From the NCBI GenBank assembly GCA_000091205.1, contig AP006496.2: a stretch of DNA of 64,000 bases; one strand, 5' to 3'. Source of the stretch: Cyanidioschyzon merolae (taxonomy: Eukaryota). The notes under the pieces are model-generated. The model had not been told where the DNA came from and searched no databases. It saw only the letters and a program-made list of their open reading frames with translations. Shown here in pieces: positions 39,001 through 63,191 of this stretch (position 1 is the first letter of the stretch; every line of letters starts with the position of its first letter). The position numbers were made by a program, and so were the translations under genes.

Positions 39001-40588
39001 TTCATTGTGCGCCCGTGTTGCTGACAAGTCCGATGTGCTGGCGCCTTGGAGCATCGGCGCTGGCCGAAAGCCTCCAAGGATGGCGGACACTGCGTCAGGA
39101 ATGCACGTCGTCGTCGTCGTCGTCGTCGTCGTCGGGGTCAGCAACGTTGACGATGCCTGCGTTGGCGGCGCTTCTCGCACGCTGGCATGAGCGGGTGCTT
39201 GCGTGCTGCACCCGACACTGGCGCCAGGTTGTGAATGCGGCATGTACGCATCATACTGGCGGCTTCTCGTTGGACACCTGTGCTCCGCTGCTGGAGCAGG
39301 CGCTTCACCTCGGCGCTGAGGCCGCGACCTGGATCGCTTTTCCGCTAGCAACCACCACGAACGCTGAAACAACACTAGGACATGCTGCTCAGCGTCGGCT
39401 TGGTCGTCATGATTGGCGTCTGCAGGCACAGGCGCTGGACGAATGGGCCACGGAGCTGATGCGACCGTTCAGTCCCGAAAGTGACGCGCTTGGCTGCACG
39501 GTGCTGCGTCCTGCTGCTGCTGCTGCTGCTGCTGCTGCCGCCGCCGCCGATTATGATGGTAATCATAACGACGGTCATGATGATCACGGTACACCCGCAT
39601 CGCTCCAAAATATCTGCAATGTTGACTCGTCAACCGCTGTAGTTGCCCTGGCGGGCGTACCCAATGCATGGCATTCGAATACGCTGGGTGCGCCGTTTTC
39701 GCAGCCGTCCACATCAGTCGACGGATTCTATGTCCAGGGCGCTGCGGCGCTGAGCGCACCTGTCACTCTTGGCGCGTTATTTGGCGTGCTACGCTCTGCT
39801 CTGGAGATGTTGGCCGTCTGGAGAACAAGCTGCTGGCAGCGTTTCATCACCAATGCATCGAGTCCGGTGGCAGCATGCAGCGTGGTGGTGGACGACGCGA
39901 ACGCCACCCATGCTGGAGCGCGCTTGCTAGCCAGCACACTCGAACGACGCTGGCTGCAGTTGCTACGCGCGTCGTTGGCACGTCTCTGGCAGGTCAGCGG
40001 GCCCGCAGACGACACAGCAGGCGATGGTGTCTGCCACTGGATCGACCGTAGCTACGGCCCATATGTGTTCTACCTGTACGGGACAGCGCTGCTGGCGCAG
40101 ATGCTCCCTGATCCAGAACGGCAGGCACTCTACAGACAGGTGCGGCATCGCTGCCCTAACTGGATACTGCCGACGCTCCTGCGTCTACACGGGGCGTTTA
40201 TGATATGGTGCTGCACTCGTGTGCGATTCCTCGAGACGTCGCAGCATGCGGCATCATCTGCAAACGAAACGGCGATGGCGTCTCCAGGCAGTGCAACGCC
40301 GCCGCTGCTGCTGCTGCTGCTGCATGGACTTGTCCATGTGCATGCGACGGAATGGGTGACGCTTTCGCAGCAATTGCTGCGCTGGCTGGAGACGGCTGGT
40401 GCGGCACCAGCCGGATTGCTTCCGTCAGCGGGTATGGCGTATGCATCGGAACGCGCGCCCCTGCCGGCAGTCTTGGCGCAACGCGTCCTTGCGCAGCGGC
40501 TCGAGACCAACCGCGTGATGCTTGGACAGATTCCAGCGCTCGATCATGTGACCGCATGGGTCGAGCGTTGCGTGGCAAGCAGCAGCAA

Positions 40589-40620
<32 letters not shown>

Positions 40621-43559
40621 ACAACACCATCCCGAGTGTCGGCAAATGTGCGATTGGCGCGTCCACTTGGACGTGCTGGGAGACGCTGTGGCAAGCGCTG
40701 CCTTGGTACTGGACATGGCTGACGCGAGTCTTGGAAAACGCTGCGCTTGGGAGCAGCGGATCGACTGCGCCCAGCACGCGGTACGCGATCACGCCTGCAC
40801 TAAGCATGGTCACCAGCGGTGTCGTTGTACGCGTCGCCCGTTTCATTCAAGTGGTACTGGCGAGTGCGCTGCTCGAGCTGACGCCCTGTGCAGAGAGCGC
40901 AGGCGCCCAGTCGGATGATGCGCGGGATCCACCGCGTGACCCAGACGCATGGATATGGGCACCAGAAATGACGGCAACGACAACGGTCGACTGGTGGGCA
41001 GCACACACCCAGCGCGCACTGCTGTTACACGCGATTGGCCCGTCGAGTGAGCGCCTCGCCGCGTTTCTCGAGCTGGTGCTTCCGCAAAACCAGTCTGGTG
41101 CTGCTGGTAACTCGACTGGTCTGCTCTGGTTTGTTCCAGCGTCACTGCAGGAGGCACACGCGCACCTCGTTGCCGATATGGTGCGTCTCTTGCATCAGGT
41201 CGAAGGCGCTGCGACGGTCCATCGTTTCTTGACGCGGCTGACGCCTCTCCTTGGAGGACGCTCTGAATACCTGGAAAGCTGGACGGGCATTCGGGCCTGT
41301 CAACGGCGTTGGTCGATCGGATTTCTCACTCGACTGGTGTTTTTGGCGAAACTGCAAGAGCCGGTACGCATACCTGGCAACGTGCACGCTCCCAGAGGCG
41401 TATCAGCGTCCGAAATCCACTGCTGCGGCAGCGACGAATGCAGCGAGACTGCTGACGCTTACGGAGCGCTGGGCGAGTCGTCGGCAAACGCTCTGTGTAG
41501 CGACCAGGAGGCAGCACTGCGACTGGCGGCCGCGTTGCAGCATCTTCTGACACAGACGCTGCTGCATGGACTGGTAGCCTCGCCGCTGCTTTGGGCCTCG
41601 GAACAGGCCGGCGCTCGTGAACGACCGGCCAGTCGCCTATGGTCGAGCATGGAGCCGCTTGTGCGCGCCCTTTGCCAGAGCGGCGATGTTGAAGACGAGG
41701 ATGCAGGAGCAGCAGCAGCAGCAGCAATGCCGTCGTGGCCGCTCTTTCTGGCGCGGTATGCAGCACGCTTCTGCAACGGGCTGGTGCGGCATCCAGCGAC
41801 AAGCGTAGCAACATCGACAACAATAGCGGCTGCAGCACCGCTGACGCATGTGCGGCACCTCTGGCTACCGTTGCTGGCGCGTTTGCGGCAGCTGGTGCCT
41901 ACAGCTTCGGCTGCGACGGTTAACAGCGAAACAAGCTGGCGCCGGCACCAGGTGTCGACGCTGCTGGCCAAGCTGGTAGACGAGCTGGAGGCGCTGCTGA
42001 CAAGTGCGCTCGCCTGGAATCATATGTGGTTGCAGGGGCGGCGTGCGGCAGTCACGGGTGATGAAACACCTGCTCTGTCGCGAGCTGCTCTGCAACTGTT
42101 CCAGTACCTCGTGGAGTTTGCTGGTATTCTTTTGGTGTTGTGTGCGCGCCTTTTGCGGGTACCAGGGCGCGCTCCGTTCTGGTCGCGAGTGATTCGTCTT
42201 GGTCGTCGAGCGCTGGAGGAGTACGCAAACATCGTTGCTGGTCAACGGCGGCAACTGCTACAGACAGAAACGTCCTATGCGCCTGGTAGGTCGCGTTCCC
42301 TGGAACACTTGCGTTGTGTCTGGATCGCTACGGTATTGCGAGGTCTCGCCCAGATGGATCTAGTGCCTAACGATAGCTACTATGCGAGTTTTCGGCGACA
42401 CTTGATTGCGGCAAGCCTCGCCCAGGATGCCCTGGATGCGCTTGTACTGGGTCTATGGCCTGGTTTGTCACCGACTTTGTTGCAGCAGCCGGTCGGCGAG
42501 AGCACGGCTGCCAGGTCCGAACGACCAGCGGTTGGTGCTTGTGTTCGCGAGTCGGATGCCGCTGCTGAGGCGACTGCGTTGCTCGCCCTGCTCGATTGGT
42601 ACTGTCGACCGGAGACGCTGTTCCCTGCAGGCACTGCTGCTCTGCAGCGACTGGAACGTTTTCAACAGGAGTGGCTAAGCGATCTGTGCAGCCGGTGCCT
42701 AGCCCAGGCGCAGTCCGAGCGTTGTGTGAACCTGTTGCAGCGCTGGCTCCAAGGTCGGCTTTTGACGTGTACCCGTCAGTCGTGCTTGTCGCATCTCAGC
42801 GGTGCTGTGTATTACGCAACGATGGCGAGAACGCTTGCCGTTGCCTGGTGGTCCGGTTGCATGCGCCACGTTGCTGTGCGTCTGAATCACGCAGGTTCAC
42901 CATCGATGACGACGACGACGACGACGACGCCAGAACAGCAACAACAACAACAACAACACAGGGCGGCGTTGCGCCCTGCAGACCGAGTGGCGACGGAAGT
43001 GATCAGCGACCAGTGCTCGGGCCGACGATTTGCACAGCGTTTTCGCAACAGCGTCGACTTGGCTGCTGCTCTAATGGAGTGGCTCGCGGCAAGCACCCGA
43101 GTGGATGCCCCCGCTCAAGCGACATGCGAGGAGACGTTGGCATTGCTGCTGGAAGCGCTAGCTGCACATGTCAGTGCCGGTTCATGTCCACATTGCGGTG
43201 ACGATCCAAGTCCGGCATCGATATCGTCTGACGAGCGCGTGCAGTTGCTACGTCGTCGACTGGCGGAACAGCGAGCACGCTCTGCCTGCGCAGCGGTACA
43301 CGCGGTATGGACGGATCATCTGGAGCGACTCGCTCGCAAGGAAGCGATGGACGCCAAGTTGTTTACCCATCCTAGTTGTTGTCGAAACTGGCTGGTGATA
43401 CAAGTCAATGACGTAGTGGAGAGAGCGGCTTGCTGGCGTCGGCGACCCGGTGATATCTGGCGGACCGCTGGACCTAGCGTCTTCGATGGAATGAAAGACG
43501 CTACGACGACGACGAGGACGCCACCGCCATGGTTGTGCTGGTCTGTACCTGAACGCTAA
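33045..43559 (+). CDS. giant low-complexity nuclear-type protein with Myb/SANT-like domain (possible N-terminal BRCT-like fold)
   Basis: Uninterrupted 10.5-kb ORF of 3504 aa. There is a SANT-like 'WTPAERRLFFAELDRWRANQWRLGTCWGIFSKAIPSRCGYQCSNFYRACI' around aa 1015. The N-terminal 'LLCAIATGHWILRASYLRASASAGCWLDNE' is BRCT-like but weak. Many homopolymer tracts (polyQ, polyA, polyS, polyT, polyD) are encoded by CAG, GCT, TCG, ACG and GAC runs. Confidence 0.6.
37604..37644 (+). repeat. (GAC)n(CAG)n trinucleotide tract inside the giant ORF
   Basis: 'gacgacgacgacgacag gagcagcagcagcagcagcagcag' encodes RRRRRQEQQQQQQQ. Similar tracts occur at about 39100-39135 (TCG)n, 39510-39550 (GCT/GCC)n and 42905-42958 (GAC)n(CAA)n. 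Confidence 0.8.
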
Positions 43560-43910: not shown

Positions 43911-44487
43911 TCTTCTCGCATGCAATAGATCGTGTTGCTAGATAGTTGCTCCTTATCAAAGAATGCGGGAAACGGATCCAAGTACTGAATAAAGTGTACT
44001 AGTCAAGGTGGACTTGCCAGTAACAGATCCTCTCTAACCCCAACGTGCTGACCTCTTTCTTCTCGCATGCAATAGATCGTGTTGCTAGATAGTTGCTCCT
44101 TATCAAAGAATGCTGGAAACGGATCCAAGTACTGAATAAAGTGTACTAGTCAAGGTGGACTTGCCAGTAACAGATCCTCTCTAACCCCAACGTGCTGACC
44201 TCTTTCTTCTCGCATGCAATAGATCGTGTTGCTAGATAGTTGCTCCTTATCAAAGAATGCTGGAAACGGATCCAAGTACTGAATAAAGTGTACTAGTCAA
44301 GGTGGACTTGCCAGTAACAGATCCTCTCTAACCCCAACGTGCTGACCTCTTTCTTCTCGCATGCAATAGATCGTGTTGCTAGATAGTTGCTCCTTATCAA
44401 AGAATGCTGGAAACGGATCCAAGTACTGAATAAAGTGTACTAGTCAAGGTGGACTTGCCAGTAACAGATCCTCTCTAACCCCAACGT
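43911..44487. repeat. 147-bp tandem repeat, about 3.9 copies (intergenic satellite-like array)
   Basis: The motif 'tcttctcgcatgcaatagatcgtgttgctagatagttgctccttatcaaagaatgc...' restarts at 43911, 44058, 44205 and 44352, a period of exactly 147. The copies are near-identical. The array lies between the giant ORF and the AVL9-like gene. Confidence 0.85.
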
Positions 44488-44697: not shown

Positions 44698-46731
44698 GTG
44701 GGCGTGTGCAGAAGCACCGAAGAAGGGGTGCTCGTGGCAGAGGGCATGCTCACCGGCTGGACCGTGCACTCGCCGACGGTTCTGAGCTGGGTTCTCGTCG
44801 GGTTTCACGCCAAACATGGACACCAAATTGAATGTGCAGAGTTAGCGGATGAGCTGTCGGTGAACTGGCAAGTGAACCAGCCAGAAGAACGCTCCGGAGC
44901 TTCAGCGCAGAACCTCAGCAATGACTGGCTTCGCGAGGTGGCCGTGCGAGCGCTTCCCGACGGTGCCCATGAACGCGACCACGACATCGTGTACTTCACC
45001 GTTCGACACTGCGTCACTGTCGACACGTTGTACGGTGTAGCTTGCTACCGACAGCGTCAGGTGGACTGCAGTCGCATCGCTAGCGCTGAGGAGGCTGCTG
45101 CAACAGCCCGAGGTCTCGTCCAAAAGTCTGTGGTATTGTTGAGTCGCTGGCCTCTGTATGCGCTTCTAGCGAGTCGACTAGAGCCGGTGGTTGCCAGTTA
45201 CTTTGCGAAACATAACTTTGGGCAGGTAGACTGCTTCCGGACCTTGGTTACGACGCTGAATGAAGAGGTAGCGGCTGCATTGGGCGACCCTGAAGTGCAA
45301 CGACTGCCGGTATCGACACCAGTGCCAGTGCAGCGACTACCAGCGTGCCTGGATCGCTACGTCTTTGGCGACACGTGTCTCCAACAGCTGGTGACGCGGC
45401 TTCGACGGGACTTGTTGCGCCTGATCAAACTCGTTTTATTAGAAAGGCGCGTTTTGGTCGTTGGGTCACCAGTCGAGCTCGTGGCTAAGGCAGTGCTTTC
45501 GCTGGTCAGCGTTTTCCCGGCCGAGTGTCTGGAGCCGCCACCGAACTCGGGGCGGGACGCTGCACTTGACCTAGCGACGTGCTGTACACTAGCACAACTT
45601 CCTTTTGGTCTGTTCGACCTGTATGGAAGCACGGGCGTGATTCGTGTTGAACCGTATGTGCCGCTGGCGTCTCTACAACCAACGTTAGCCGAACGAGACG
45701 CTGATACTGCTGCTGCCACAACAACGCGCTGGATCGTTGGGGTATCTACACCTGTCGGTCGACTATTTGCGGATGCTTGTCGGTCTGCTGGGGTCTTTGA
45801 ACGCTCACCGGTGCGATCCCTATTCGTAACAGGGCGCTCGGCGTCTGCGCAGACACCACACTCGGTACCTGAGTCGATGTCTCCGGAGCGCAGCGACACC
45901 AGGCCAGCCAAGGCTTCGTGGCGGCCGATGAACGCCTTCCCGCAGCCGCCAGATGCACTGGTGCACCTTGAGCGAGGTCGGGTCTATTTCACGCCGGAAC
46001 TCGCGTCACTTTTAGAGCTAACTCGTTCAGAGAAACGTTTCATAGATGAGCTGGTCCATGCGACTGCACGCGGAGCACTGAACGAGTCAGCAGTGCGAGC
46101 ACGCCTTCAATGGTACATCGTGAAGCTTGCCTTGATAGCTGCAGTGGCTGGTGATGATGCCCCCATGCCCGCTGAACAGCAACCTGCTCTGATCGATGAA
46201 CTAGGTCTCCCGTTTTTCCAGCACTGGAATCGTCATACAACGCATTTTCGACGCTGGCACGCTTCATTGCATAGGGCACATGCGACGCTGCGACGCAACG
46301 CACTGGGACATGTGTTGCGGTACGCGTCGAGCATGCCGACTGCCGTCGATGAACAACAGCAACAACAACATTCGATGCGCGCCTCCTTCGAGGAGCTGGA
46401 CGCGGGGCTGGGGCTGCATTCGCTTCGCCAGGCTTGGATGCGCTGGTGGCGCTCCGCTACCTCCACGGACGATACTCGACGGCAGTCGTCGTGGAGAGTG
46501 CATCACGGAACTGCGGTCACTCGAGTCGAGAGCCGTGGAGCCAGCGATGCTTGGCAGCGCTCCTGGGCACTGCCGTCCATCTCCGCGGGTACCATTGCCG
46601 ACGAAGCATGGGCGTCATCTGGCGAAGCGTCAACGATTCCGCAGGCGAAAGCGCACCTGATGACGCCAGCGGTTGCCGCTGCCTTCACGTCGACGGATAT
46701 CACGTTATTGCGGGATCGCTTGTCGCCCTGA
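44698..46731 (+). CDS. AVL9/DENND6-like (DENN-related longin-fold) protein
   Basis: 677 aa. The N-terminal 'VLVGFHAKHGHQIECA' resembles AVL9/DENND6 'vvGFhH.rG.eiEy'. A central 'LLERRVLVVGSPVELVAKAVLSLVSVFP' matches the DENN-core motif 'LLtEkkilf.S...'. The rest is low complexity. Confidence 0.45.
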   Translation: MGVCRSTEEGVLVAEGMLTGWTVHSPTVLSWVLVGFHAKHGHQIECAELADELSVNWQVNQPEERSGASAQNLSNDWLREVAVRALPDGAHERDHDIVYFTVRHCVTVDTLYGVACYRQRQVDCSRIASAEEAAATARGLVQKSVVLLSRWPLYALLASRLEPVVASYFAKHNFGQVDCFRTLVTTLNEEVAAALGDPEVQRLPVSTPVPVQRLPACLDRYVFGDTCLQQLVTRLRRDLLRLIKLVLLERRVLVVGSPVELVAKAVLSLVSVFPAECLEPPPNSGRDAALDLATCCTLAQLPFGLFDLYGSTGVIRVEPYVPLASLQPTLAERDADTAAATTTRWIVGVSTPVGRLFADACRSAGVFERSPVRSLFVTGRSASAQTPHSVPESMSPERSDTRPAKASWRPMNAFPQPPDALVHLERGRVYFTPELASLLELTRSEKRFIDELVHATARGALNESAVRARLQWYIVKLALIAAVAGDDAPMPAEQQPALIDELGLPFFQHWNRHTTHFRRWHASLHRAHATLRRNALGHVLRYASSMPTAVDEQQQQQHSMRASFEELDAGLGLHSLRQAWMRWWRSATSTDDTRRQSSWRVHHGTAVTRVESRGASDAWQRSWALPSISAGTIADEAWASSGEASTIPQAKAHLMTPAVAAAFTSTDITLLRDRLSP

Positions 46732-48789: not shown

Positions 48790-51700
48790 GCCAAACGCCT
48801 TTCGAAAGTCGAACGACGTCGGGCGTGTACAGTAGCGGCGACCGGCGGCCTAGACGTAACGCTTCCAGCTGGTGTGCAGACGCCTCCCAGCGTTTCTCGG
48901 CGGGCCACGTACTATTTCTTCTAATTTCGTCTCATATACTTCTACTTTTCGAGATTGTCCAACAAAATTCCCTCTTGTCTACTCTGGAGGTCTGTTCTCC
49001 AGCACTGCCCATCTCCGGATATTGATAGCGGCGTTAAAGTCACGATTCACAAAATCCATACGTCTCCTGCAATCTCTGGTTGTACTTTCTGATGCAAGTA
49101 GTCCACGAACTTTCGCTCTCCTTTCAATTTGCTCTTCCGTCAGCGGTTCGTGCTTTGCTATTTCCGAACGGCTCGTTGGCACTTTTCCATCTCCACTGTC
49201 TGAAGTGTACAACCCATTTCATGGTGTGTATAGGACGTTCGGAACTCATGTACAGGTATCGTGAAGAAACGCCTTGCGCACTCTTTGTATGTTCTTGCCG
49301 TTGGAACTGGCGCAGTCCCTTTTTTCGACGCCGAGCACCCTGCTCTGTACGCTACTACGAGCCTCTGACTTTCATCCTCCTTCAGGGCGCTCAACTGATT
49401 GAAAAAATTCGCGAACGCCCGCTGCTTCCCACAATACAAGTTCATTCACAAACGAGCCCACCGGGGCTTGGTATACTCCTCCCACAGCGCCTCCCAATGA
49501 GCAGCGCGAACTTTCATGAATTTCCGAAAAGCTTCAAAGTCCGCTCCTCGGCTAGTCACCTCGCTCAAAGCTTCCATGTGATCCTTCACTCCTGAATTCC
49601 ATTTCTCGATTTTCTTCCTTGCATTCATTATACCGGATTCTCGATAGTATCTTGGTCTCGAGAACCTCAAAAGACGCATGTCTCTCTAACGAAAGTTACC
49701 ACCAGTACTATCTTCCGCACGCTTCGGTGCTGCGATGGTGATGATATTCGTATTCCCGGGGTCCGCGCCAACGACAAAGTCGTTATCTTGTACTTTCTGT
49801 GCCGCAGGATCCGCCTTCTTGTTTTCTTCATGCTTCGTCGCGCCAACGACAAAGTCGTTATCTTCCACTTTCTGGGTCGCAGGATCCTCCTCTTTCTTTT
49901 CTTCATGCTCCGCCGCGTCAACGACAATGTGGTTATCCTCCACCTCCTGCGTCGCAGGATCCTCCTCTTTCTTTTCTTCATGCTCCGCCGCGTCAACGAC
50001 AAAGTCGTTATCCTCCGTCTCCTGCGTAGCAGGGTGCGCCTCCTTCTCATCTTCATGCCTCGCCGCATCAACGACATGGTCGTTATCTTCCACCTCCTGC
50101 ATGAGAGGATCCTCCTCTTTGTTTTCTTCATCCTTCGTCATGGGCGCAGTCGAGGGCGGAATTGGACGATCTTTCTTCAACCGCCGATAGTGTATACACA
50201 TGGCTACTCCATCGGTTTCGATCAACCCAGTAAATACCTTTTGTTTGGTCTCTTTGAGACGTTTGAAATTGAAGATATTCTTCCAGTACGTCTCCCGGTT
50301 ATCACCGGAGAACTCCTTGTTGCTAACATTGAACTCCGGACAGATCTCCTTCATGATGCCATGAAGGATCCTGGAGTCGATACTCACAAAATGTGACTTG
50401 ATGTTGCACAACGGAACCACGTTGAACCGCTTACCCATTAGGAAAGCCTTCTGTCTCTCCCACTCTTCATTTTTCCTCACTCAGCTTCATCTCCGCCTTG
50501 CGTTCGAGTTCTCGATTCAGGAATACGAAATAGAGCAGGATGAGTTGATAGCATCTTTTTTCATCTTTTTTGAACTCTGATATTTTTTCTGTTGGATTCG
50601 CCAGCCCCATGACTGCACGGTGCTCTTGTATAACCGCACGGATTACAGAAGCCTCATTCGTGCTCTCGTTTGGCGCCTTCTTGTCGACAAATTCGACCTC
50701 ATCTTCATACTTTCGATCGTTCGTGATGCCATTGATAATCGCCCATATTCCTTTGCGAGACAGGCCCGGGTAGAGTGGAAACACGGTGCGTATTATGAAA
50801 CGTTCGAGGTTCATTGTCAAATGGTTCTTCAGGTTCGTGATGTGCTTCATCGCCCCGTAGCCGTAAATACCCCGGTCACCCTTGTATCGAGTACCGTTGA
50901 AGCTGTAAAAGGGATGTTTTTCGTGGGGGCCATGCACTAGCACATTTTCCCTCCGCGTTTTCTCTCCACCAAGCATCAGGTGTCGAATAAAGGTGATGTC
51001 GAAAAACTCGTCTGGAATCTCGACCGTTTCGATGTGCGTCACGTCTTTGTACATCTCCCTCGCCAAATGCATCAGCCCTGACGACGCCTTGACAATACTC
51101 TTGGAGTACGAGTCGACGCGTTTTTCGATAGCGTCTCGCAACTTTTCCCTGTACGGATCCTTGATATGGCCAAGAAGAAAGGCTCTCATCACCTTCTCGT
51201 CGTACAGTCGTCTTTCTTGCCGCCTTCGACGTAGGACCTCTCCCCTTCGGTTCTTTTTCTTCTCCTTTTCTTCTGGGCTCGGCACTGTTTTTCGTTTTTT
51301 CTGGCAGCCAGCGATACTGGGCCTCCAGGATCGTCGACTTGCTTTTTCATAGCTTTCCTTTTTCAGTTTTTTTAAATGAACCCGCTGTGAATGCTTCGGT
51401 TATATACTGCGAAAAAACACTTGGCCAGACTTGTTTGAGGGTTGAAACACCAATGAACTGAAAACTATATTTTTGTTCGACTCCGACGCAAATACAACTT
51501 TTACAGCTGAACAACACGCTCCTGGTCAGCATCGCGGTTCCTTTCAACGGCGGCATGTGCATCGCGTCAGTTGACTGCCTGATCTCCGAGATGCGTTCAT
51601 TAAGCGCAATGCGTCCATCGCACGAGACGCCACTCCAGTCGATGAAGGACACGTGTCCGACACCCCGCATTGGCACATGCGTGTTCGCATCGCATTGCAG

Positions 51701-51790
51701 CCAAACTAAAGTATCGTAGATAGGAAACTCACGTAGAACGATCTCTTGCTATAGACGCTGTCGCTGGTGCCGAAGCTACTGCCCATCGCA
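48790..51790 (-). mobile_element. Fanzor/TnpB-like (OMEGA-family) nuclease element, copy 1; AT-richer than surroundings; frame-disrupted
   Basis: The encoded protein pieces carry a basic NLS-like N-terminus (EKEKKKNRRGEVLRRRRQERR), the RuvC-I motif '[15 protein letters not shown]', the mid motif 'VHEFRTSYTHHE' and the RuvC-III motif 'FVNRDFNAAINIRR'. Non-coding homology to copy 2 extends about 500 bp 5' of the ATG and about 190 bp 3' of the stop. Local GC is clearly lower than the flanks. Confidence 0.65.
48979..51350 (-). pseudogene. Fanzor/TnpB-like RuvC nuclease coding region, copy 1 (split into 5 ORF pieces by frameshifts)
   Basis: The ORF pieces are 50467-51285, 49686-50480, 49446-49679, 49158-49445 and 48979-49212, all on the minus strand, and concatenate into one Fanzor-like protein. 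The breaks after KLSEEK and after EKCQRAVRK are absent in copy 2. The breaks at GNFR/MRLL and near the N-terminal MKKQ ORF are shared with copy 2. Confidence 0.6.
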
Positions 51791-52563
51791 GTACCGCCTG
51801 GACATACATGGAAATGTTGGGACCTAACGCGATACCTCGTGATGCTTCTATCAAAAGCGTAGCGTTCTCTGCGGCTTACCGTTGTGTGGATGACGTATGC
51901 ATCACTCTTCTCACTAGGAATTTCGTTAGTTTTATTCATCGTAACCAAACTAGGTACGGTGGGATTCCTGAACACGGACATACGTTTAATGCCGATGCTT
52001 GTCACGCATGCTACACTGACGCTGGAATGAGGAACTGACCTGAATTGTGCTTCTATCCTGCGTCATAGGCTGGTACTGATGACCGTTCAAGTCATTTCCA
52101 TGCTGCTGTCGTTGTCTAACTTATGGTGCCTGCTTCGTCCTCCGGATCCGGTGATCTTGGCAGAGGCATAGCACACTCGACCGGCCCCCTGCTATCGGTT
52201 TCAGCTTCTCCTTGTTCACCTCTGGCCTGGGAGGTTCCCCCAGAAAGTTGGACCGCGTCAGCTCCGCCGGTCGCGCGTTCATCACCATTCATCATCTGAT
52301 ATTGATGGCGTTTTGTCTGAAACGCTCGTGATAGAGCTGAGGTCAAGAAGCGATCAATCTTGACCGACGCTATCAAACGAGCGGTACCAGAAGCTGAGGG
52401 CTGCAGCCGGCACCAGGTGCTCTGATGCCTACATGCTGGCCGTGAATAGTGCGTGACGAAGTCGCACAGCATGCCACGGTTTCCTAGTACGTAAACCAAG
52501 CACGTATTCGAAACGTTCGGGTTCAGTGTGATGACGAGTCGCCGCTACGGCATTCTGGGAAAA

Positions 52564-53664: not shown

Positions 53665-54240
53665 TCACATGTGCGCTTCGATGCCACGGAGGATTTCTTC
53701 GGCCTTGGCGCCGTTAATCGTGAGCACGCGGTCACCATTCTTGTAGAAATGAAAGCTCGGTACGCTGCGAATACCAGCGGCCTTCATCATCATAGATGTT
53801 TCCTTGGACTTATCCCCCACCACTTTTAAGAACACCACGTCGGTGTACTCCTCACTCCATGATTCCATCTTCGGTTCCATGAGTTTGCACGGCCCGCACC
53901 AGGTGGTCCCGTAATCGACAACAATGAGCTTGTTCCCCGCTTCCGACAGGATGCGTTCCATTTCCTCTTGTGAATCAACTTCCCGAACCGCCATCCTAGG
54001 CCGAAGCGAACCCAGAGGCCTGCGGCGGCTGTAGCTGTAGCTGCAGCGGTGGTGGTGGTGGTGGTGGTGTCCAGACCCAACGCCCTGCTGCACCGTTCCG
54101 AGGGCGTGTCGGCGCCATAGCGGCGCTTTACTGCCACTAGCAAGCAAGGCCCGTGTACACACCGCGCCACTACCGAGGTCAGCGCGTTTCCCGACCGATC
54201 CCGCAACAGGTACTGATACAAAGCAACTGATTCCTACCAT
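53665..54240 (-). CDS. TRX: thioredoxin (WCGPC active site); core domain from ATG at 53994, upstream in-frame 82-aa extension with (His)7 may be a presequence
   Basis: 'LIVVDYGTTWCGPCKLMEPKMESWSEEYTDVVFLKV...GIRSVPSFHFYKNGDRVLTINGA' is a canonical thioredoxin. The longer ORF adds an R/S-rich N-terminus containing HHHHHHH encoded by (GTG)n. Confidence 0.8.
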   Translation of the reverse strand: MVGISCFVSVPVAGSVGKRADLGSGAVCTRALLASGSKAPLWRRHALGTVQQGVGSGHHHHHHHRCSYSYSRRRPLGSLRPRMAVREVDSQEEMERILSEAGNKLIVVDYGTTWCGPCKLMEPKMESWSEEYTDVVFLKVVGDKSKETSMMMKAAGIRSVPSFHFYKNGDRVLTINGAKAEEILRGIEAHM

Positions 54241-54425
54241 TTCCGTCTCTCAGGGTCCTGCTTGTGTGGAGTACACGTTGCCCAGCAAAGCACCAGCGTA
54301 GAGCAGTCGCCACAACGATCTCCGCGCCTGTGCGCTGCGGCTGGCGCACTGCCGCATCTCATCGAGGCGAGATCGCGGCGCCTGGAAGTGGACATCAGCG
54401 GCGGCAGCGGCGGCAGCGGCAGCAG

Positions 54426-54626
54426 GTGTCACGAGCACGGGGTGCGGACATATACCAACGAACATACGGTGTGTCGATGGGTGCTGCTTTGGGTGTCACG
54501 CGCACGGGGTTCCGAAGTATATCAGTGAACATACGATGTGTCGATGGGCGCTGCTTTGGGTGTCACGCGCACGGGGTGCGGACGTATATCAGTGAACATA
54601 CGGTGTGTCGATGGGCGCTGCATTGG
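54426..54626. repeat. 67-bp tandem repeat x3 upstream of the thioredoxin gene
   Basis: The unit 'gtgtcacgcgcacggggtgcggac.tata.cagtgaacatacggtgtgtcgatgggcgctgctttgg' is repeated three times contiguously, about 190-430 bp 5' of the thioredoxin ORF. Confidence 0.8.
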
Positions 54627-56406
54627 ATGAGCGTCGATTGCGATCGTTTGCCAGATGAAGCATTTCTAGAAGCGGATGTACACCTCCTAACGCATGATAT
54701 TTCCTGTATGGATGCGTCCGTTGCTTGACAAGGCCAGGGTGATCTCGACTTCGGATCGGATGCTGTTGATGATACGCCAATGATCGAGAGATCATTCGGG
54801 TATCGAAAGCATGATCGGTCTCGTGTACCAGATAGATTGCAATCGCGAATACTGGAACCGAGGAGCACCCCAGTACGCGAGCGCTCGCAACACGTGTCCC
54901 CACTGAGCGAGCGCCTCACTGGGCGACATCGGCCTCGTGGTGAAGCGTCGCAGCGTGCCCCTATTCATAAGCAACGACGATGCTGCAGTCCTGGCGCTGC
55001 GATTGTGCCGTTTGTGGTCTGCTAGTATTATTTTGACACGGTTCGACACCTGATACCGAGGGCTCGCGCTGCCGCGGGATGCCCAGCTCCGGTTTTCGAT
55101 CCCCGCCTTCGAGCGCTGCCTTTCGGATTCAACGACCGGCTCAGCAGCGAGACTAGTGACGAATCGTCTGAAAGCGCTGCTAGGACGCTGCGCACTGCCT
55201 CTGTGTACACGCGTAGGCGGTGGGTATCTGGATGCGACGCGCTCGGCTTTGCTCAGCGGAGCGCTTTTGTGCAACCATTGCGCATGTTGCTGCTCGGTTG
55301 CGACTTGGTCTGGATGGCAGTCTATTCGAGTCTGAAAGTCACGCATTAGGTCATGAGGGTCATTTTCACTTTAGTGACATGCAAAACGGAAAGCAGGTAC
55401 TCAATGTTCCAATGGGGTTTGCTTGCGTGCATCCATAGACGGCCCGCATCAAGCTTCCGCTCGATGCTGTTTCTGGCGCTGAGCATCGCGGGCACGCGGC
55501 ACTCGGCACTGTGAGGTGAGCAGCGACCTGCGCGAGCGCAACACATTACGGCCGCAGGAAGAGGTGTCGATCAAAGGGGTCGAACGGATTCCACTGCCCA
55601 TGGGTCACTCGGTGAAGCCGTTCGCATGTACCCGTTCCCAGTCATCATCAGCGTGTTGGGTATCGATCAGCGTTTGCGTTTCGCGCTTGAAGCAACTGCC
55701 TCTCTTCATATACCACGGATGCATCCGTATGCTCGGCTTGTATGGACCACGAACTGGATCCCATGTCAAGCAGGCAAACGGACGCGCTCTTTCGTGACCA
55801 ATACACAGCATCTGCTGAGCGTCGCTCGATCGCTTTCTTCCTTCCAGTCCGCGAATGCTCCGATGCGTGCTCGTTCGACGCGAAGTCGCACCAGAGAAAC
55901 TGCATCGAACAGAGTCCGTCATGCATCGTCGCAGGAAACACAGCATTATCATAAACACGCACGCTGCCTCGGGTCTTTTGAGCCTTGCGCACATCAAAAG
56001 TCAACAGGCCCGCTGCCGGGTGCATCGCGACGATCGTCAGCGATCAGTGCGTACCGTCCGAGATCGTGATTCCCTAACCAGCATGAGCGCGTCGTTCCTT
56101 GTACATCATCCACACTATAGTGCTGCGTCATCCACGCTCAGTGCTCACACGACGCGCCCAGCTCTAACAGATGCGCCGCCTGACTATTGCGCAGACAACC
56201 GGAGGCACACATCCGCGAAACCAGACATCGCCGGTATTTCCCCAGGCAAGTCATTTGCTGAACGCGCGGTCATTCAAGGGAGCCTATCGGGAAATGCCTA
56301 GAAATGACGAGCCCCTATGGCAGGTGCATGAGCCTTCACTGCCACCGTTCTATGCCTTCTGTCCTGAGACGCGCCGGCGCTGTCGCGGCCGTCGGTAAGC
56401 CAGCGC

Positions 56407-57075
56407 TCAAGCACCAGCGCTGTAACAATGCTGGCTGGGATCCGAGCCCAAGATGACGTAGGTGTAAATTTCGTCGTTCAGCATTTGTGCGGTATACGAT
56501 GCGATAAACTTGTACCGACCAGAGGTCAGCGCTGAACGGAATACCCGTTCCATCTCTGGAACCACCAGCATTGCAGCTTCAAAGGCCTCCCGTCCAAAGA
56601 GGCCCTCGCCGCCGTATGCATACGGACTCGACCAGTTGAAATAGTGCGCTGGCAACTTTGTGGCATGCGCAGCGCCCATATAGTCGGTGCTGGTCCAGCC
56701 GCCCACGGCGAGCGCTGACTCGACAGCTGCCCGTCCGAGCGCACTGCAGTTGCCAGCGGCCACGTCTGCTATCGGACACTCCACCATGTTATCCACGACG
56801 TTCGCAGCACCAATGATCAGTCCCTTGTTCAGACACAGGTCATGATCAAGGTCTGCAAGCGCATTCATGATGGTAAAGTCGTATTGCGACACGTTCAGGG
56901 CCATAGCGTCGGTCTCGTTGATGTAGATGCCACCGAGCGCCCTGCTCGGCACCCGCAGGATACTCTCTTCGAGCGTCTCGAGGTTCAGCGGCGTAACCAC
57001 TGTCGCAGCACAACGAGACAAACATCCCGCAAGCCCCCACAGGCTAAGAAAAGCGAAAAGAAGCCACGCTCGCAT
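56407..57075 (-). CDS. secreted protein, paralog A of a small family (signal peptide, N-glycosylation sites, conserved C-terminal LGxDPSQHCY)
   Basis: 222 aa from the ATG at 57075, which starts 'MRAWLLFAFLSLWGLAGC' (a signal-peptide-like hydrophobic N-terminus). It shares 'LN.SQ..FT..NAL..L...LCLN', 'CSAL', 'GWTST', 'YFNWS' and 'LGSDPSQHCY' with the ORF at 62544-63191. The ORF-track extension to 57528 is probably non-coding. Confidence 0.5.
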   Translation of the reverse strand: MRAWLLFAFLSLWGLAGCLSRCAATVVTPLNLETLEESILRVPSRALGGIYINETDAMALNVSQYDFTIMNALADLDHDLCLNKGLIIGAANVVDNMVECPIADVAAGNCSALGRAAVESALAVGGWTSTDYMGAAHATKLPAHYFNWSSPYAYGGEGLFGREAFEAAMLVVPEMERVFRSALTSGRYKFIASYTAQMLNDEIYTYVILGSDPSQHCYSAGA

Positions 57076-57439
57076 ATTAATCAGAACAGAGCCACGTTCC
57101 AGGAAAAACAGCAATGTCTCTATCGTGGGTGGTGCTGCATTGGGGATCAAGGCGCACCGCGTGTGCGTGCGTCTGTGCGCGGAGCGCCCTGCGGCGAACA
57201 GGCCCCGGTGCAGGCCCTGCGAGACGCCGCGGTGGCACCACCGGCGCACGCCTCGGGAGCCGGCACACTCGATCCGTGGCGATCGAACAGGCCCAGCGGC
57301 AGCGCCAAAATGGGCGTTCGGGACGTCGGCGGCGCCACCAGCATCAGCGATCGGCGCCAGATTAGGAAGCGATGCGTGCCGGCGCGCGCTGTTTCCGACG
57401 TTCCAGGCGTCGACGCGTCGATGTCGGTGGTGGTGGCTG

Positions 57440-60250
57440 CGGGCGCCTGCATCTCCACTTAGGTGAGGGCGGTACTGAGATGGGCAGGAGCGTCGGCACC
57501 AGCGACATAGCATAGAGCAGGAGTGCATTCTACGTGAATTTCCAATCTAGGACACCTGATTTCAGCTGCAGTGCGATGCGAACACGCATGTGCCAATGCG
57601 GCTTCGGACACGTGTGCTTCATCGATCGGAGCAGCGTCTCGTGCAGTGCACGCATCGCGCTCGGTGAGCGCACCCCGGAGATCAGGCAGTCCATTGACGC
57701 GACGCGTATGTCGCCAATGAGGGGAAACGTGATCTTGATCAGTAACGTGTAGCCGCAATGTAAAATTGTAATTTCATTGAGTTCGTATCCAGGTATAGTT
57801 TTTATTTCAATTGTGCTTCACCCTTAAAACAAGCGTAGTCAAGTGTTTTCTCGCGGTATATAACAGAAGCGTTCAAAGAACGTTCTTTTTCAAAAAAAAA
57901 TCTAAAAAAAGGAAAGTTATGAAAAAGCAAGTCGACGATCCTGGAGGCCCAGTGTCGCTGGCTGCCAGAAAAAACGAAAAACAGTGCCGTGCCCAGAAGA
58001 AAAGGAGAAGAAAAAGAACCGAAGGGGAGAGGTCCTACGTCGAAGGCGGCAAGAAAGACGACTGTACGACGAGAAGGTGATGAGAGCCTTTCTTCTTGGC
58101 CATATCAGGGATCCGTACAGGGAAAAGTTGCGAGACGCTATCGAAAAACGCGTCGACTCGTACCCCAAGAGTATTGTCAAGGCGTCGTCAGGGCTCATGC
58201 ATTTGGCGAGGGAGATGTATCGCGACGTGACGCACATCGAAACGGTCGAGCTTCCGGACGAGTTTTTCGACATCACCTTTATTCGACACCTGATGCTTGG
58301 CACAGGGGAAGCGCGGAGGGAAAATGTGCTAGTGCATGGCCCCCACGAAAAACATCCCTTTTACAGCTTCCAGGGTAATCGATACAGCGATGACGGAAAT
58401 ATTTACACATGCGGGGTAATGAAGTACATCACGAACCCGAAGAACCATTTTACAGTGAACCTCGAACGTTTCATGATACGCGCCGTGTTTCCACTCTACC
58501 CGGGCCTGTCTCGCAAAGAAATACGGGCGATTATCAATGGCATCACGAAGGATCGTAAGCATAAAGATGAGGTCGAATTCGTCGACAAGAAGCCGTCACG
58601 CAGGAGCACGAATGAGGATTCTGTAATCCGTGCGGTTGTACAAGAGCACCGTGCGGTACTGGGGCTGGCGAGTCCAACGGAAAAGATATCAGATTTAAAA
58701 AAAGATAAGGAAAGATACTATCGCCTCGTCCCGCGATATTTTGTGTTTCTGGACCGAGAGCTCGAACGCAAGGCAGAGGTGAAGCTGAATGGGAAAAATG
58801 ACGAGTGGGAGAGACGGAGGGCTTTCCTAATGGGAAGCGCTTCAACCTCGTTCCAATGTGCAACATCAAGTCACATTTTGTGAGTATCGACTCCAGGATC
58901 CTTCATGGCATCATCAGGGAGATCTGTCCGGAGTTCGATATAAGGGAGACAGAGTTCACCGGTGAAAACCGGGAGACATACTGGAAGAATATCTTCAATT
59001 TCAAACGTCTCAAAGTGACCAAACAAAAGGTATTTACTGGGTTGATCGAAACCGATGGAGTAGCCATGTGTATACACTATCAGCGTTTGAAGAAAGATCG
59101 TCCTGGTCCGCCCTCGGCGAACCACGAAGATGAGACGGAGGCGGTTCCTGCCACGTAGAAAGTGCAGGAAAACGACTTTGTCGTTGGTGCGGCGAAGCAT
59201 AAAGATGAGGAGGAGGAGGATCCTGCGACGCATGAGGTGGAGGATAACGACTTTGTGGTAGGCGTGAACCCCGGGAACACGAATATCATAACCATCGCTG
59301 TATCCAAGCGTGCAGAAGATGGTACTGACGGCAACTTGCGTCAGAAGACATGCGACTTTTGAGGTGCTCGAGAGCAAAATGCTATCGAGAATCCGGTATC
59401 ATGAATGCAAGGAAGAAAATTGAGACATGGAATGCAGTAATGAAGGATCACCCGGAAGCTTTGAGCGAGGTGACGAGCCGCGGCGGGGACTTTAACGCTT
59501 TTCTGAAAATCATGAAACTTCGCGTTGCTCGTTGGGATGCGCTGTGGGAGGAGTATACAAAGCCTCGGTGGGCTCGTCAACGTATGAAACTATACTGTGG
59601 TAAGCGGCGCGCGTTCGCGAATTTTTTCAATCAGTTGAGCGCCCTCAAAGAGGATGAAAGTCAGAGGCTCGTAGTAGCATACGGAGCAGGGCGCTGGAAG
59701 ATCCAAAAAAGGACTACGCCAGCTCCATCGACAAGAACGTATAAGGAGTGTGCACGGCGTTTTGCTACAATACCTGTTGATGAGTTCCGAACATCGTATA
59801 CACACCATGAACGGTGATGTACGCTCCAGAGAGTCGAGATGAAAAAGCGCCAGAGGAGCCCTGAGGATATAAAAAAGTACGGAGCGCAAACGGAAGAGCA
59901 AATGGAAAGGAAAGCGAAAGTTCGTGGACTGATCGCATTGGCGAGTACAATCAATGGCAAGAAACGTATCGAATTCGTGAACCGAGACTTTAACGCCGCC
60001 ATCAATAGAAGGAGATGTGCGGCGATGGAGACGAGACCTGCGGAGTTGACAAGAGAGAATTTTATGGGGCAACCTCTCAAGGTGGAATTATACGATACGA
60101 AGCTGAAGTCAGTAGTAGGTGGCCGGTCGAGAAAGACGGGGAGGCGTCTGCATTTCAGTTGGAGACGTCTCGTCTAGGACGAGTTCGCCGCCACTGCTGT
60201 ACACCGCTGGCGGCAGCGTTGTTCTTTTGGAAAGCGTTTGTTGTTCGTGG
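57440..60250 (+). mobile_element. Fanzor/TnpB-like (OMEGA-family) nuclease element, copy 2, inverted relative to copy 1
   Basis: It has the same architecture and flanking non-coding homology as copy 1 at about 80-90% nucleotide identity. The RuvC-I motif reads '[15 protein letters not shown]' (Asp to Asn). The RuvC-III motif 'FVNRDFNAAINRRR' is present. There is an in-frame TGA at 59816-59818. Confidence 0.65.
57919..60180 (+). pseudogene. Fanzor/TnpB-like RuvC nuclease coding region, copy 2 (frameshifts plus in-frame stop)
   Basis: The ORF pieces are 57984-58883, 58805-59158, 59162-59362, 59350-59817 and 59839-60177. There is a 1-bp deletion in 'ggaaag' after AFLMG relative to copy 1, and a TGA within '...THHER*CTLQRVEM...' where copy 1 reads HHEMGCTLQTVEM. 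Confidence 0.6.
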
Positions 60251-62543
60251 TGCTCTTGCCGTTTGTCTCATGCGCGTTTGAAGGTGCGAATTTAGCAAGT
60301 CGAGTTGGGCTCGTCACGGGTGTGTGTGCACCGCAGGCGCGGGCAACGTGGTACACGACGCTCGTACCTCCACGGATGCTTCCAAGTGAACCACTGGTGC
60401 CGGACTGGTGTTCCTCTCAGAGATAGTGGTTTAACCGTTTCCGTTTCCCCGCGGTTGCTGAGCGCAGAAGGGACAGCTTTGCTGTACGAATGGACGAATA
60501 TCGCTTCGAGGTGCACTGTCCAGCATACCGGGCATAGAGGCTGATAGATCGGGCGCTTTGGTATCGGTGCGTTGCGAAACCGCGCAAGGTTCAAGAAGCA
60601 TGCAGTCCGCTTTACTTTCTGGATTTTTGGCACCAGTGCCCATATACGGTTGCTCGAACCGAATACAGTGCTTTCGCTAGGCGCTAGCGGCAACGGAGCT
60701 CAATGATCATGCGCTGCTCCAGTGTCAGAGAGAAATGGAGCTGGTGTGCTGATTCGGGTGTATTCGCTGAAGTTTTGATTTCTTTCCCTTGTGATGCGCA
60801 CCAGCTTTTGCGGACATCTTCCGCGCCCGCTTCCTTTTCGTATCTCGCATATCGGCCTCGGAATACGCCGGTGCCGTGTCTCGCCTCAGCTGCGGTGTCA
60901 GCAGCGGAAGGATGTTGATGACAGCGTTGGAGCCCGCGTTTCGTTGTTTCCCACTGCTGTTGGAGCATTTTACGCAGAGGCGCAAGTTCCTATCTACGAT
61001 TCGCTTTCCTTTTTCTGCTTCATTGTATGGAGCGTCGGTGTGCTCTTCACAGCCGTCATACGTGACTGTGGTGAGGTGTTTTCGTATATCCATCACTAGA
61101 CCCTTTCTCCTCCTCCTCCAAGGTTTTTTTGCGATGTGGCGCATGAACGCTTGCATCAGCGCTCGGTACGTGTCCTCGACTGGTACAGATGGCTCTTTTC
61201 GATGTTTTCATCAGGCGCCGCGCCCGGTGCTGTGCCCAGTGATCACGGCTCGCGTCAGACGATTCCCTCGGCGAGTACTCTGTCCACCGCACATGCAAGC
61301 GAAGGCTGTTCCACTCGATACGGGATTAGCGGCACCCGATATCGTCCGTAATCAAACAAGTGCGGGAAGGGTAATCCAGTTTAGAGAAAAGTTGAGAACA
61401 TTCGATCCGTCTCCGTTCCCTTCGCGCACAGCAATGACGCACTCTCTAAAGGGAGCGGTCGCTTCGATGACGCAAGTCGCACTCTGAATCCAAGACGATT
61501 TTCCATGCGAACACACGGGACGAGAGCCCGCTGGAGCAGTTCCCGCAAAATGTTTCGTACAGGTGTGAGATTTCTTTTCGTAGACGACCGCTAAAAGAGG
61601 CGGATTTGTGTTTTTCGAACGGAATCGATAAATTGACATGACAAGTTCAGTGGTCTTTTGGCAAGAGTTTTTGATCAAGAGGTCATGGTGCGACGTCGAG
61701 GATGCTTCTGCGTCATTCCAGCGGGGCGAGTTGCCGCGCGCACGAGTTTCCATGCAGGATATTGATCGAAAACTTGAAGAATACATGGTTTGAGCGTGGG
61801 GCACGTAGGGATCGGAAAAGGACGGAGGAACACAGGTATGCATTGGATAACGATATCGGTTATTTCACGAACCCTCGCTCGAGGGCGTCGCAAATCATCG
61901 CGATTCAACGGACGTCACGAATTCCAGCTCTGTACTGTATCGAAAGAGCCTCCCAAAGTAAATATGGCCGAGAATCACTGACCTACATATCCATCCGTAC
62001 GCCCGTATTGTTGCGCTTAGAATACCGCGGTTGTAGACCCAAGAACGCGTTCGGAATAGAGTCGGAAAGCAGGAGCAGAGTGAGCAGTTCAGTGCTCCAG
62101 TTGAGAGCCTGGCACGCGTATGAGCTCGACGCGCGCATCCATCGCCTGCCGCCGTGCACGGCAATTTGCCAGCGGCGGAAATCATCGCGCCATCGACAGG
62201 AGCCACTGTGCGCGCTGAACGACGTCGCCTTGCTGTGGGCGCGCCTCGACCCGAACGCGTCGGTGTTTGCTTCACAAAATCGCGTGCAGCAAAGGCATCG
62301 AAAGACGGGGATTCGGAGCGGCTCATGAGCGCGCGCACCATGGAATGCGTGACACGTGTCCCACAGCGGCGCGGTGACGTGCACGTGCCGAATTTGGCAG
62401 CGCTGTGTGTTGTATTGGGATGTGGATGCGGTGCGAAACGCTCGGTGTGTATCGACACGAACGCATTTGCATGTTTTTTTGCGACTGTAGCAGATACTTC
62501 AAGGCTAACCTGTGTCTTCGACTACAAGTCGTTTATTATTCCG

Positions 62544-63191
62544 ATGGTTTCGAACAGGTCTGCGTTTAGGCTAGCCGTGCTCGCTCTTGCGCTGATACTC
62601 TTTACTATGATCTGGGACGCTGCTGTCTATCGGGGAACCTCAGCGCTGCCGCTGAGCACCCAGGTACGCGCTGCAGAGAACAGAACGCACCACCTCCCCG
62701 ATGCCGTTGCAGCGGCGCTCAACTACACGCAGTTCGAGTACACGCTCGCAAACTCACTGTATAAAATCAACCCGCATATATGCCTGAACTATGCCTTGTC
62801 AGTTGCGGCAGCGAACCTGGCGGATCTCCTCACCTACTGCACGCCAGATCAGGTTGGGAATAACAGCTGTAGCGCTCTGACGCCCGGTGCTATCGCTCGG
62901 ACGCTGCTCGCTGCGGGATGGACCAGCACGAATATCCAGCTCGTGGACCTCGCAGCCAAGGTGCCAGCAAGGTATTTCAATTGGTCGACCAGTGACGGGC
63001 TCTCGGGTCTGCAAGCGTACCACGTCGGTCTTCAAGCTGCACCATACGTTGTGAACCAACTGCGGCCTTACCTACATAGTGGACAACTCAACCTGGTTGG
63101 GGTAGGTGCAGTGGCTCTCCGCACAGACTACGTGTACGCGATGGTTGCCCTGGGCGGGGATCCATCGCAACACTGCTACGAAGCGAGCTAG
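62544..63191 (+). CDS. secreted protein, paralog B of the same family as 56407-57075
   Basis: 215 aa from the ATG at 62544, which starts 'MVSNRSAFRLAVLALALILFTMIW' (signal peptide). It has several N-x-S/T sites and the same conserved blocks, ending 'LGGDPSQHCYEAS*'. Confidence 0.5.
   Translation: MVSNRSAFRLAVLALALILFTMIWDAAVYRGTSALPLSTQVRAAENRTHHLPDAVAAALNYTQFEYTLANSLYKINPHICLNYALSVAAANLADLLTYCTPDQVGNNSCSALTPGAIARTLLAAGWTSTNIQLVDLAAKVPARYFNWSTSDGLSGLQAYHVGLQAAPYVVNQLRPYLHSGQLNLVGVGAVALRTDYVYAMVALGGDPSQHCYEAS

Follow-up and report, generated by a model that had tools for sequence, protein, structure and literature searches.

CMN280C and CMN283C of Cyanidioschyzon merolae: an old pair of paralogs from a lineage-specific family of candidate secreted glycoproteins with a predicted CAP-like fold

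A 64,000-nucleotide stretch of DNA from Cyanidioschyzon merolae, a red alga of hot springs (contig AP006496.2; hereafter the window), which an exact-sequence match places on chromosome 14 of strain 10D, contains two similar open reading frames (ORFs) whose products raise the question of what they are and whether they belong to anything known. The original prediction described them as an old pair of secreted, N-glycosylation-rich paralogs with no recognizable domain. We found both ORFs where it had placed them: CMN280C on the minus strand at 56407–57075 (222 amino acids plus stop; BAM81357.1/XP_005537393.1) and CMN283C on the plus strand at 62544–63191 (215 amino acids plus stop; BAM81358.1/XP_005537394.1, with an identical start). 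They are genuine intron-less genes, divergently transcribed. Taken together, our results make it somewhat probable that the products are non-catalytic secreted glycoproteins with the fold of the CAP superfamily and that they have a role at the cell surface or in the wall, mainly in walled diploids.

The two proteins are paralogs. BLASTP with compositional adjustment aligned them over 170 amino acids with 35% identity and 52% positives (E 5e-36), so the proposed relationship holds, but the identity of 40–45% given earlier was too high. At that composition-adjusted E-value the similarity is not restricted to low-complexity regions, and the conserved blocks quoted in the original prediction all occur in both proteins, in the forms LN.[ST]Q..[FY]T..N[AS]L, [LI]CLN, CSAL, GWTST, YFNWS, and LG.DPSQHCY. 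Orthologs of the two genes are adjacent in Cyanidiococcus yangmingshanensis (CCYA08G2278 for CMN280C and CCYA08G2277 for CMN283C), and a third species, known from metagenome and NCBI contigs (L001–L003), also has both side by side; the pairs in these species are divergently oriented, as in C. merolae. The gene order Na/H exchanger, PEPCK, dehydrogenase, CMN283C, CMN280C, and thioredoxin f is kept across species. In a neighbor-joining tree, the CMN280C and CMN283C orthologs, from three species each, formed separate clades with 100% bootstrap support each. The duplication is therefore older than the split of Cyanidioschyzon and Cyanidiococcus, in agreement with the age suggested by the original prediction. 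The CMN280C clade joins the Cyanidium protein 04G1188 with 69% bootstrap support, and the duplication probably predates the split from Cyanidium as well.

In both other species, the orthologs show 69–77% amino-acid identity to the C. merolae proteins (those of CMN283C are P0023 and P0024). Compared with the orthologs of the third species, the proportions of nonsynonymous (pN) and synonymous (pS) differences were 0.19 and 0.74 for CMN280C and 0.18 and 0.76 for CMN283C; with synonymous sites saturated, a pN of 0.18–0.19 implies strong purifying selection on both genes. These numbers bear directly on the suspicion that the two are chance ORFs or pseudogenes, which arises from the many long spurious ORFs that GC-rich DNA yields in the window and from the fact that transcript data come from a Cyanidium homolog and not from the two loci themselves. 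Amino-acid identity has been retained in two species despite the saturation of synonymous sites; reading frames, cysteines, and glycosylation sequons are kept over 16 homologs, and a fold is predicted with confidence. The contrast of pN and pS effectively refutes the idea, and we give it next to no credence.

The database model of CMN280C is longer, 373 amino acids at 56407–57528, and includes a 5′ extension of 151 codons (57076–57528, minus strand). We rejected this model for the 222-amino-acid ORF starting at the methionine at 57075. The ortholog in the sister species begins at the equivalent methionine and has an in-frame stop upstream, and the orthologs in two species share this start at the same place. 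The ~450 nucleotides upstream of the gene show ~52% nucleotide identity to the sister species, with indels whose lengths are not multiples of three. Finally, the long model opens with ~26 codons, positions 57450–57528, that fall within a repeated element's terminal arm. The shorter start is thus correct because of the shared methionine and upstream stop, the lack of conservation in the extension, and its overlap with the repeat arm; the extension is non-coding, and the database gene model is thereby corrected.

To delimit the family, we searched 1.84 billion representative proteins exhaustively with a profile. The search returned about a dozen clusters, several of them without a species name, and the named ones all came from the cyanidiophycean genera Cyanidioschyzon, Cyanidiococcus, and Cyanidium, as would be expected of the lineage-specific family that had been suggested. 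Core members scored profile E-values from 1e-109 to 1e-39, and two divergent members scored from 3e-9 to 5e-4; with a threshold of E ≤ 1e-3, neither Galdieria nor any further organism yielded a family member. Two bacterial tandem-repeat proteins (P0034 and P0035, 1009 and 1360 amino acids) matched a short stretch many times and were set aside as compositional or spurious. A third C. merolae gene, CMS349C, belongs to the family, and Cyanidium caldarium contributes at least six members; C. merolae-like populations in a metagenome scan have the CMN280C, CMN283C, and CMS349C types only. We define this CMN280C/CMN283C/CMS349C family by a signal peptide followed by a single domain of ~165 amino acids with four invariant cysteines. 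Its motifs, found in the members, are C-x18-C-x9-C and, near the C terminus, Q-x-C, together with CLN, GW[TS], and the sequons LN[YV][ST] and FN[WF][ST].

A few observations concern individual members. The divergent P0036 has no other family member adjoining its locus. In Cyanidium, CDCA18G4580 and CDCA18G4582 (P0030 and P0048) are more than 90% identical and two gene numbers apart, which indicates a recent tandem duplication. One of the two carries the UniRef tag "Peptidylprolyl isomerase", and EukProt has a 626-amino-acid fusion; the tag looks like an annotation error or the result of a fused gene model. Residues 119–229 of a divergent member from the third species (P0033) matched PF25195, "Diatom pyrenoid component 2" (DPC2), at E 0.018 and 15.9 bits, against a cut-off of 70, probably by chance. 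Over all our Pfam searches, those of the repeat described below included, weak matches to Apex, RepB_primase_C, and Umbravirus_LDM fell far below the cut-off and were also rejected.

Are the proteins likely to be secreted? Both N termini combine a basic n-region, a hydrophobic core of 15–16 residues, and small residues at positions −3 and −1, and, judged heuristically from these features, each ORF begins with a signal peptide, as had been claimed. In CMN280C it is predicted to span residues 1–24, MRAWLLFAFLSLWGLAGCLSRCAA, with T following (57004–57075, minus strand), and the cleavage site, between RCAA and T, aligns with the site between VG[SN]A and [AT]VV in the orthologs. In CMN283C it would cover residues 1–34, with the hydrophobic core at 10–24 (62544–62645, plus strand), and cleavage is expected between TSA and LP, where x-A before LP is conserved in the orthologs. 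An N-terminal hydrophobic core is present in every full-length family member, P0002 being a 5′-truncated gene call, while no member of the 16-sequence alignment has a C-terminal hydrophobic segment or an endoplasmic reticulum-retention signal. The N-terminal signal peptide by which secreted CAP-superfamily proteins are recognized is thus predicted in the family. In the AlphaFold2 model of CMN283C, residues 5–29 form a lone helix that is followed by a disordered linker at 33–47.

The mature part of each protein contains four N-glycosylation sequons, N53, N61, N109, and N147 in CMN280C and N46, N60, N106, and N146 in CMN283C, of which N46 lies just upstream of the domain. This is ~3 times the number expected from shuffled sequences (P about 0.015). 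Their conservation is stronger evidence than the enrichment: the sequons LN[YVIL][ST] and FN[WF][ST] are each present in 15 of the 16 family members, and a third (GNCS) in 10–13 of them. The description of the pair as rich in N-glycosylation sites is therefore well founded as far as predicted sites go, and glycans may occupy some or all of them. In the same algal lineage, mass spectrometry has detected high-mannose N-glycans at an N-Y-S sequon of a secreted protein (PMC6508830). The four cysteines are invariant in 16 of 16 family sequences.

The domain itself was approached through predicted structures. The AlphaFold model of CMN280C, built from a six-sequence alignment, had a predicted local distance difference test score (pLDDT) of 70 overall and of 70–90 over most of the domain; that of CMN283C, built from the 16-sequence alignment, reached 90 overall and 92–98 across residues 50–215. 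Among the top structural matches for the CMN280C model, 18 of 19 were CAP/SCP/PR-1 proteins, and the independent models of the two proteins gave the same list. In the models, the CAP-like domain occupies residues ~50–218 of CMN280C (56422–56928, minus strand; Cys81, Cys100, Cys110, and Cys217) and residues ~50–212 of CMN283C (62691–63179, plus strand; Cys80, Cys99, Cys109, and Cys211). The predicted elements follow the CAP order of helix, short strand, helix, insertion, long strand, long helix, and beta hairpin, and the defining features of the fold, an alpha-beta-alpha sandwich in which the helices are ordered as in CAP and the antiparallel sheet has three strands, appear in the prediction. 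The insertion consists of two short helices that separate helix 2 from the first long strand, and it bears two of the cysteines. UniRef already names one Cyanidium member, A0AAV9J0W3, "CAP domain-containing protein". Contrary to the original prediction, which could not assign the pair to any known family, the predicted structures make it a member of the CAP superfamily by fold, though not of PF00188.

The closest structural matches were Borrelia BB0689 (4D53), Enterococcus PrgA (6Z9K), Staphylococcus aureus SAV1118 (4H0A), and a Bacillus anthracis SCP protein (4IFA), all of which are extracellular or surface proteins according to their PDB titles. Identity to such bacterial SCP/CAP surface proteins is 9–14% in structural alignments, with no detectable sequence homology. 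The algal proteins differ from them in their probable N-glycosylation, in their own four-cysteine pattern, and in the extra helical insertion. They also differ from eukaryotic CAP proteins (plant PR-1/P14a, yeast Pry1, GAPR-1, CRISPs, and nematode VAL/ASP) in the positions of the putative disulfides. Regular expressions of the PROSITE type for CRISP_1 and CRISP_2 (PS01009 and PS01010) matched 0 of 16 family sequences but did match P14a and Pry1, which served as positive controls. By the sequence definitions (PF00188 or CRISP_1 and CRISP_2), the family would thus not count as CAP. Known CAP proteins are recognized by the CAP1–4 motifs and by a cavity tetrad of His/Glu/Glu/His that binds Zn or Mg (PMC4921858). 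In our alignment, no column had His in more than 6 of 16 or Glu in more than 9 of 16 sequences, and the invariant and near-invariant columns contained neither residue; the motifs and the tetrad are absent.

CAP proteins without the motifs have precedents in the bacterial SCP proteins and in SmVAL4, which still binds sterol (PMC4921858). Another conceivable function of the algal family is that of secreted carriers similar to Pry1, SmVAL4, or tablysin, whose small hydrophobic ligands, such as sterols or fatty acids, would be bound for export or sequestration, for example in lipid detoxification at the acid-exposed plasma membrane. We consider this unlikely, although it deserves some weight. The loop with the caveolin-binding motif of Pry1 has no recognizable counterpart in the alignment; the aromatic loop that the family conserves precedes the long helix instead of following it and appears to bear a conserved N-glycan site; and the strong diploid bias of a Cyanidium homolog (below) fits a role in the wall or the extracellular matrix (ECM) better.

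The function that we favor for the family is a structural or binding one outside the cell. Each protein of ~20 kDa would enter the secretory pathway via its cleavable N-terminal signal peptide and fold into a single CAP/SCP/PR-1-type alpha-beta-alpha sandwich, probably stabilized by two family-specific disulfides formed by the four invariant cysteines (the pairs C99–C109 and C80–C211 would be expected in CMN283C). N-glycans on as many as four of the conserved sequons would probably add to its stability. The family appears to have lost, or never had, the CAP1–4 motifs and the metal-binding His/Glu/Glu/His tetrad, and without them the proteins most likely serve outside the cell as binding or scaffold modules that have no catalytic activity, not as metal-dependent CAPs. 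Our best guess is that they would form a soluble or wall-associated part of the acid-exposed cell surface or ECM, mainly in the cell-walled diploid phase. The family would then join SmVAL4 and the bacterial SCP proteins as a case in which the CAP fold has been kept although its signature motifs and metal site are missing, which bears on the question of what CAP domains do; divergent CAP domains are common, however, and as no new mechanism is implied, the case will not surprise specialists.

A full-text literature search found no published work on CMN280C, CMN283C, or CMS349C, and the terms "CAP domain", "SCP", and "pathogenesis-related" had no occurrences in the texts on phase-biased Cyanidiophyceae proteins. 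Among the rows listed in the supplements of PMC13353863, PMC12112623, PMC12770821, and PMC4549557, one belonged to a Cyanidium member of the family. This homolog, g1201, has a SignalP call of SP(Sec/SPI) and 0 transmembrane segments, and its expression is high, ~915 transcripts per million (TPM) in cell-walled diploids vs. ~120 in wall-less haploids, a difference of about 8-fold (log fold change 3.2, false discovery rate 0; PMC13353863, Hirooka et al. 2026). It adjoins the thioredoxin f ortholog, which is the position of CMN280C, and is very probably the same gene as CDCA04G1188. Cells of Cyanidioschyzon, Cyanidiococcus, and Cyanidium have a largely proteinaceous wall in the diploid phase only, and 35–50% of the genes for secretory proteins are phase-biased in these genera (PMC13353863). 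Other signal-peptide proteins that differ between walled diploids and wall-less haploids include FAS1-domain proteins, the lysyl oxidase-like CMN144C, and trefoil-factor-like/Hog proteins (PMC13353863), and LOXL has been proven to be secreted and N-glycosylated (PMC6508830). These phase-biased proteins share hosts and predicted destination with the CMN280C/CMN283C family, whereas their folds and sequences are unrelated to it.

In Cyanidium, g1201 lies within a syntenic block, g1200–g1208, that contains thioredoxin f, the family member, cinnamyl-alcohol dehydrogenase, PEPCK, and NHE8 (Data Set S9, PMC13353863); its C. merolae counterpart is at 53665–63191. The Cyanidium block is interrupted by two hedgehog-like (Hog) genes. 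Within it, g1204 encodes a "hypothetical protein" with a signal peptide whose top match is CMX055C; it is expressed at ~190 TPM in diploids vs. ~2 in haploids, nearly confined to the diploid phase, and might conceivably be the counterpart of CMN283C.

The same expression data bear on a very different role, in which the proteins would serve as factors of cell–cell recognition or adhesion in the sexual cycle, during the mating of haploid isogametes, in the manner of CRISPs in animal fertilization. Statements in a review implicate CAP proteins in cell–cell adhesion at fertilization (PMC11784157), strain 10D, a haploid that lacks a wall, has kept the genes, and the family is confined to genera with a newly discovered sexual cycle (PMC13353863). 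The sole member with expression data is nevertheless diploid- and not haploid-biased, the family has no membrane anchor, and Galdieria is also sexual but has no detectable member. We regard a mating function as highly improbable.

A bolder version of the wall reading is that this CAP-fold family without motifs is a dedicated building block or organizer of the unusual, largely proteinaceous, and reportedly proton-tight diploid wall. We hold this to be speculative and, on the present evidence, rather unlikely. If it were true, the CAP fold would here be put to structural use, and the family would be either an invention of this lineage or an old acquisition from bacteria, linked to life at pH 0.5–3. 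The number of paralogs may track the thickness of the wall, with at least six in the thick-walled Cyanidium and three in C. merolae.

Several results count against the reading of the pair as secreted CAP-fold glycoproteins of the diploid surface, and they concern the fold, the export, and the phase. On the fold, a Pfam hmmscan run at E ≤ 10 on CMN280C, CMN283C, and ten of their homologs did not match CAP (PF00188), NCBIfam gave nothing credible on 16 members, and searches of PDB by phmmer and by the family profile gave no CAP match; an hhalign comparison with a PR-1/P14a, Pry1, and GAPR-1 profile from PDB sequences gave a probability of 0.06%. The earlier statement that the proteins have no recognizable domain thus stands for sequence methods, Pfam, NCBIfam, and PDB all being empty, and fails for the fold, where the models point to CAP/SCP/PR-1. 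Although the Foldseek matches are CAP-dominated, the best has an E-value of 3.6e-3 and template modeling scores of 0.39/0.57 (0.57 on the target), and with E-values this weak it is the predicted structures that would carry any common ancestry with CAP proteins. That the tetrad is absent was read from the conservation of alignment columns rather than from a three-dimensional superposition. The likeness to CAP could be convergent or an over-interpretation by AlphaFold, the family being an unrelated novel secreted domain. The missing sequence and profile–profile signal, the deviating cysteine pattern, the additional pair of helices inserted after helix 2, ahead of the first long strand, and Foldseek E-values of about 1e-2 would fit such an origin; the agreement between the two independent models and the CAP order of their elements favor the CAP fold, and we consider both convergence and over-interpretation improbable.

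On export and phase, the hydrophobic segment of CMN283C could be a signal anchor rather than a cleaved peptide. The known diploid bias is that of one Cyanidium paralog, and the expression support for CMN280C and CMN283C would come by analogy with g1201, while their localization and glycosylation are those predicted from the protein sequences. Strain 10D, moreover, is a wall-less haploid, yet all three of its family genes are intact. With these points taken into account, we still find a surface or wall role of CAP-fold glycoproteins the somewhat probable explanation. Two "hypothetical proteins" of a model alga thereby become testable candidate CAP-fold glycoproteins of genera with a protein-rich wall and a very acidic habitat. 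As C. merolae is tractable by homologous recombination, knockouts of one to three of the genes and tagging are straightforward, and the family offers a useful handle for the annotation and dissection of the cyanidialean cell surface.

How does the pair relate to the repeats around it? According to the original prediction, one of the genes sits in a segment bracketed by Fanzor elements, and the duplication of the genes is separate from that recent repeat. A degenerate copy of a ~3 kb repeated element, recognized by inverted-repeat pairs (I1–I10) and broken ORFs, is found at 57450–60181 on the plus strand, and a second, inverted copy, recognized by inverted-repeat alignment and broken ORFs, at 48846–51816 on the minus strand; the two are 75–91% identical. 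The first copy (~2.7 kb) starts 375 bp upstream of the ATG of CMN280C, and together the two bracket CMN280C and the thioredoxin f gene CMN279C. The intergenic gap between CMN280C and CMN283C is 5.5 kb in C. merolae vs. ~1.15 kb in the sister species, where the ~2.7 kb repeat is absent, and the gap is wider in C. merolae because the repeat was inserted there; a spacing of ~5.6 kb is also seen on a 95-kb metagenome contig. The repeat is thus an insertion into a pre-existing intergenic region, and the duplication is indeed a separate event. The bracketing of CMN280C is real but incidental.

The Fanzor identity of the repeat was not confirmed by our searches: its concatenated ORF fragments gave no TnpB/Fanzor match in Pfam or in a PDB sequence search. 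From the literature description of CMe-1A, a ~3 kb Fanzor1 element with ~150 copies in the C. merolae genome (Bao & Jurka 2013, PMC3627910), the repeated element is nevertheless the probable CMe-1A/Fanzor1 transposon. The repeat copies show the RuvC-like strings VDEFRTS and NRDFNAAIN. One copy contains four 75-nucleotide tandem units (49763–50137, 78–100% identity) that encode a charged repeat, expanded in comparison with the other copy. No tRNA genes were found in the 48–64 kb part of the window. Further from the pair, a perfect tandem repeat of ~4 units of 147 nucleotides, 100% identical, occupies 43911–44487 in the intergenic region between a 3504-amino-acid ORF (33045–43559) and an Avl9-like gene (44698–46731).

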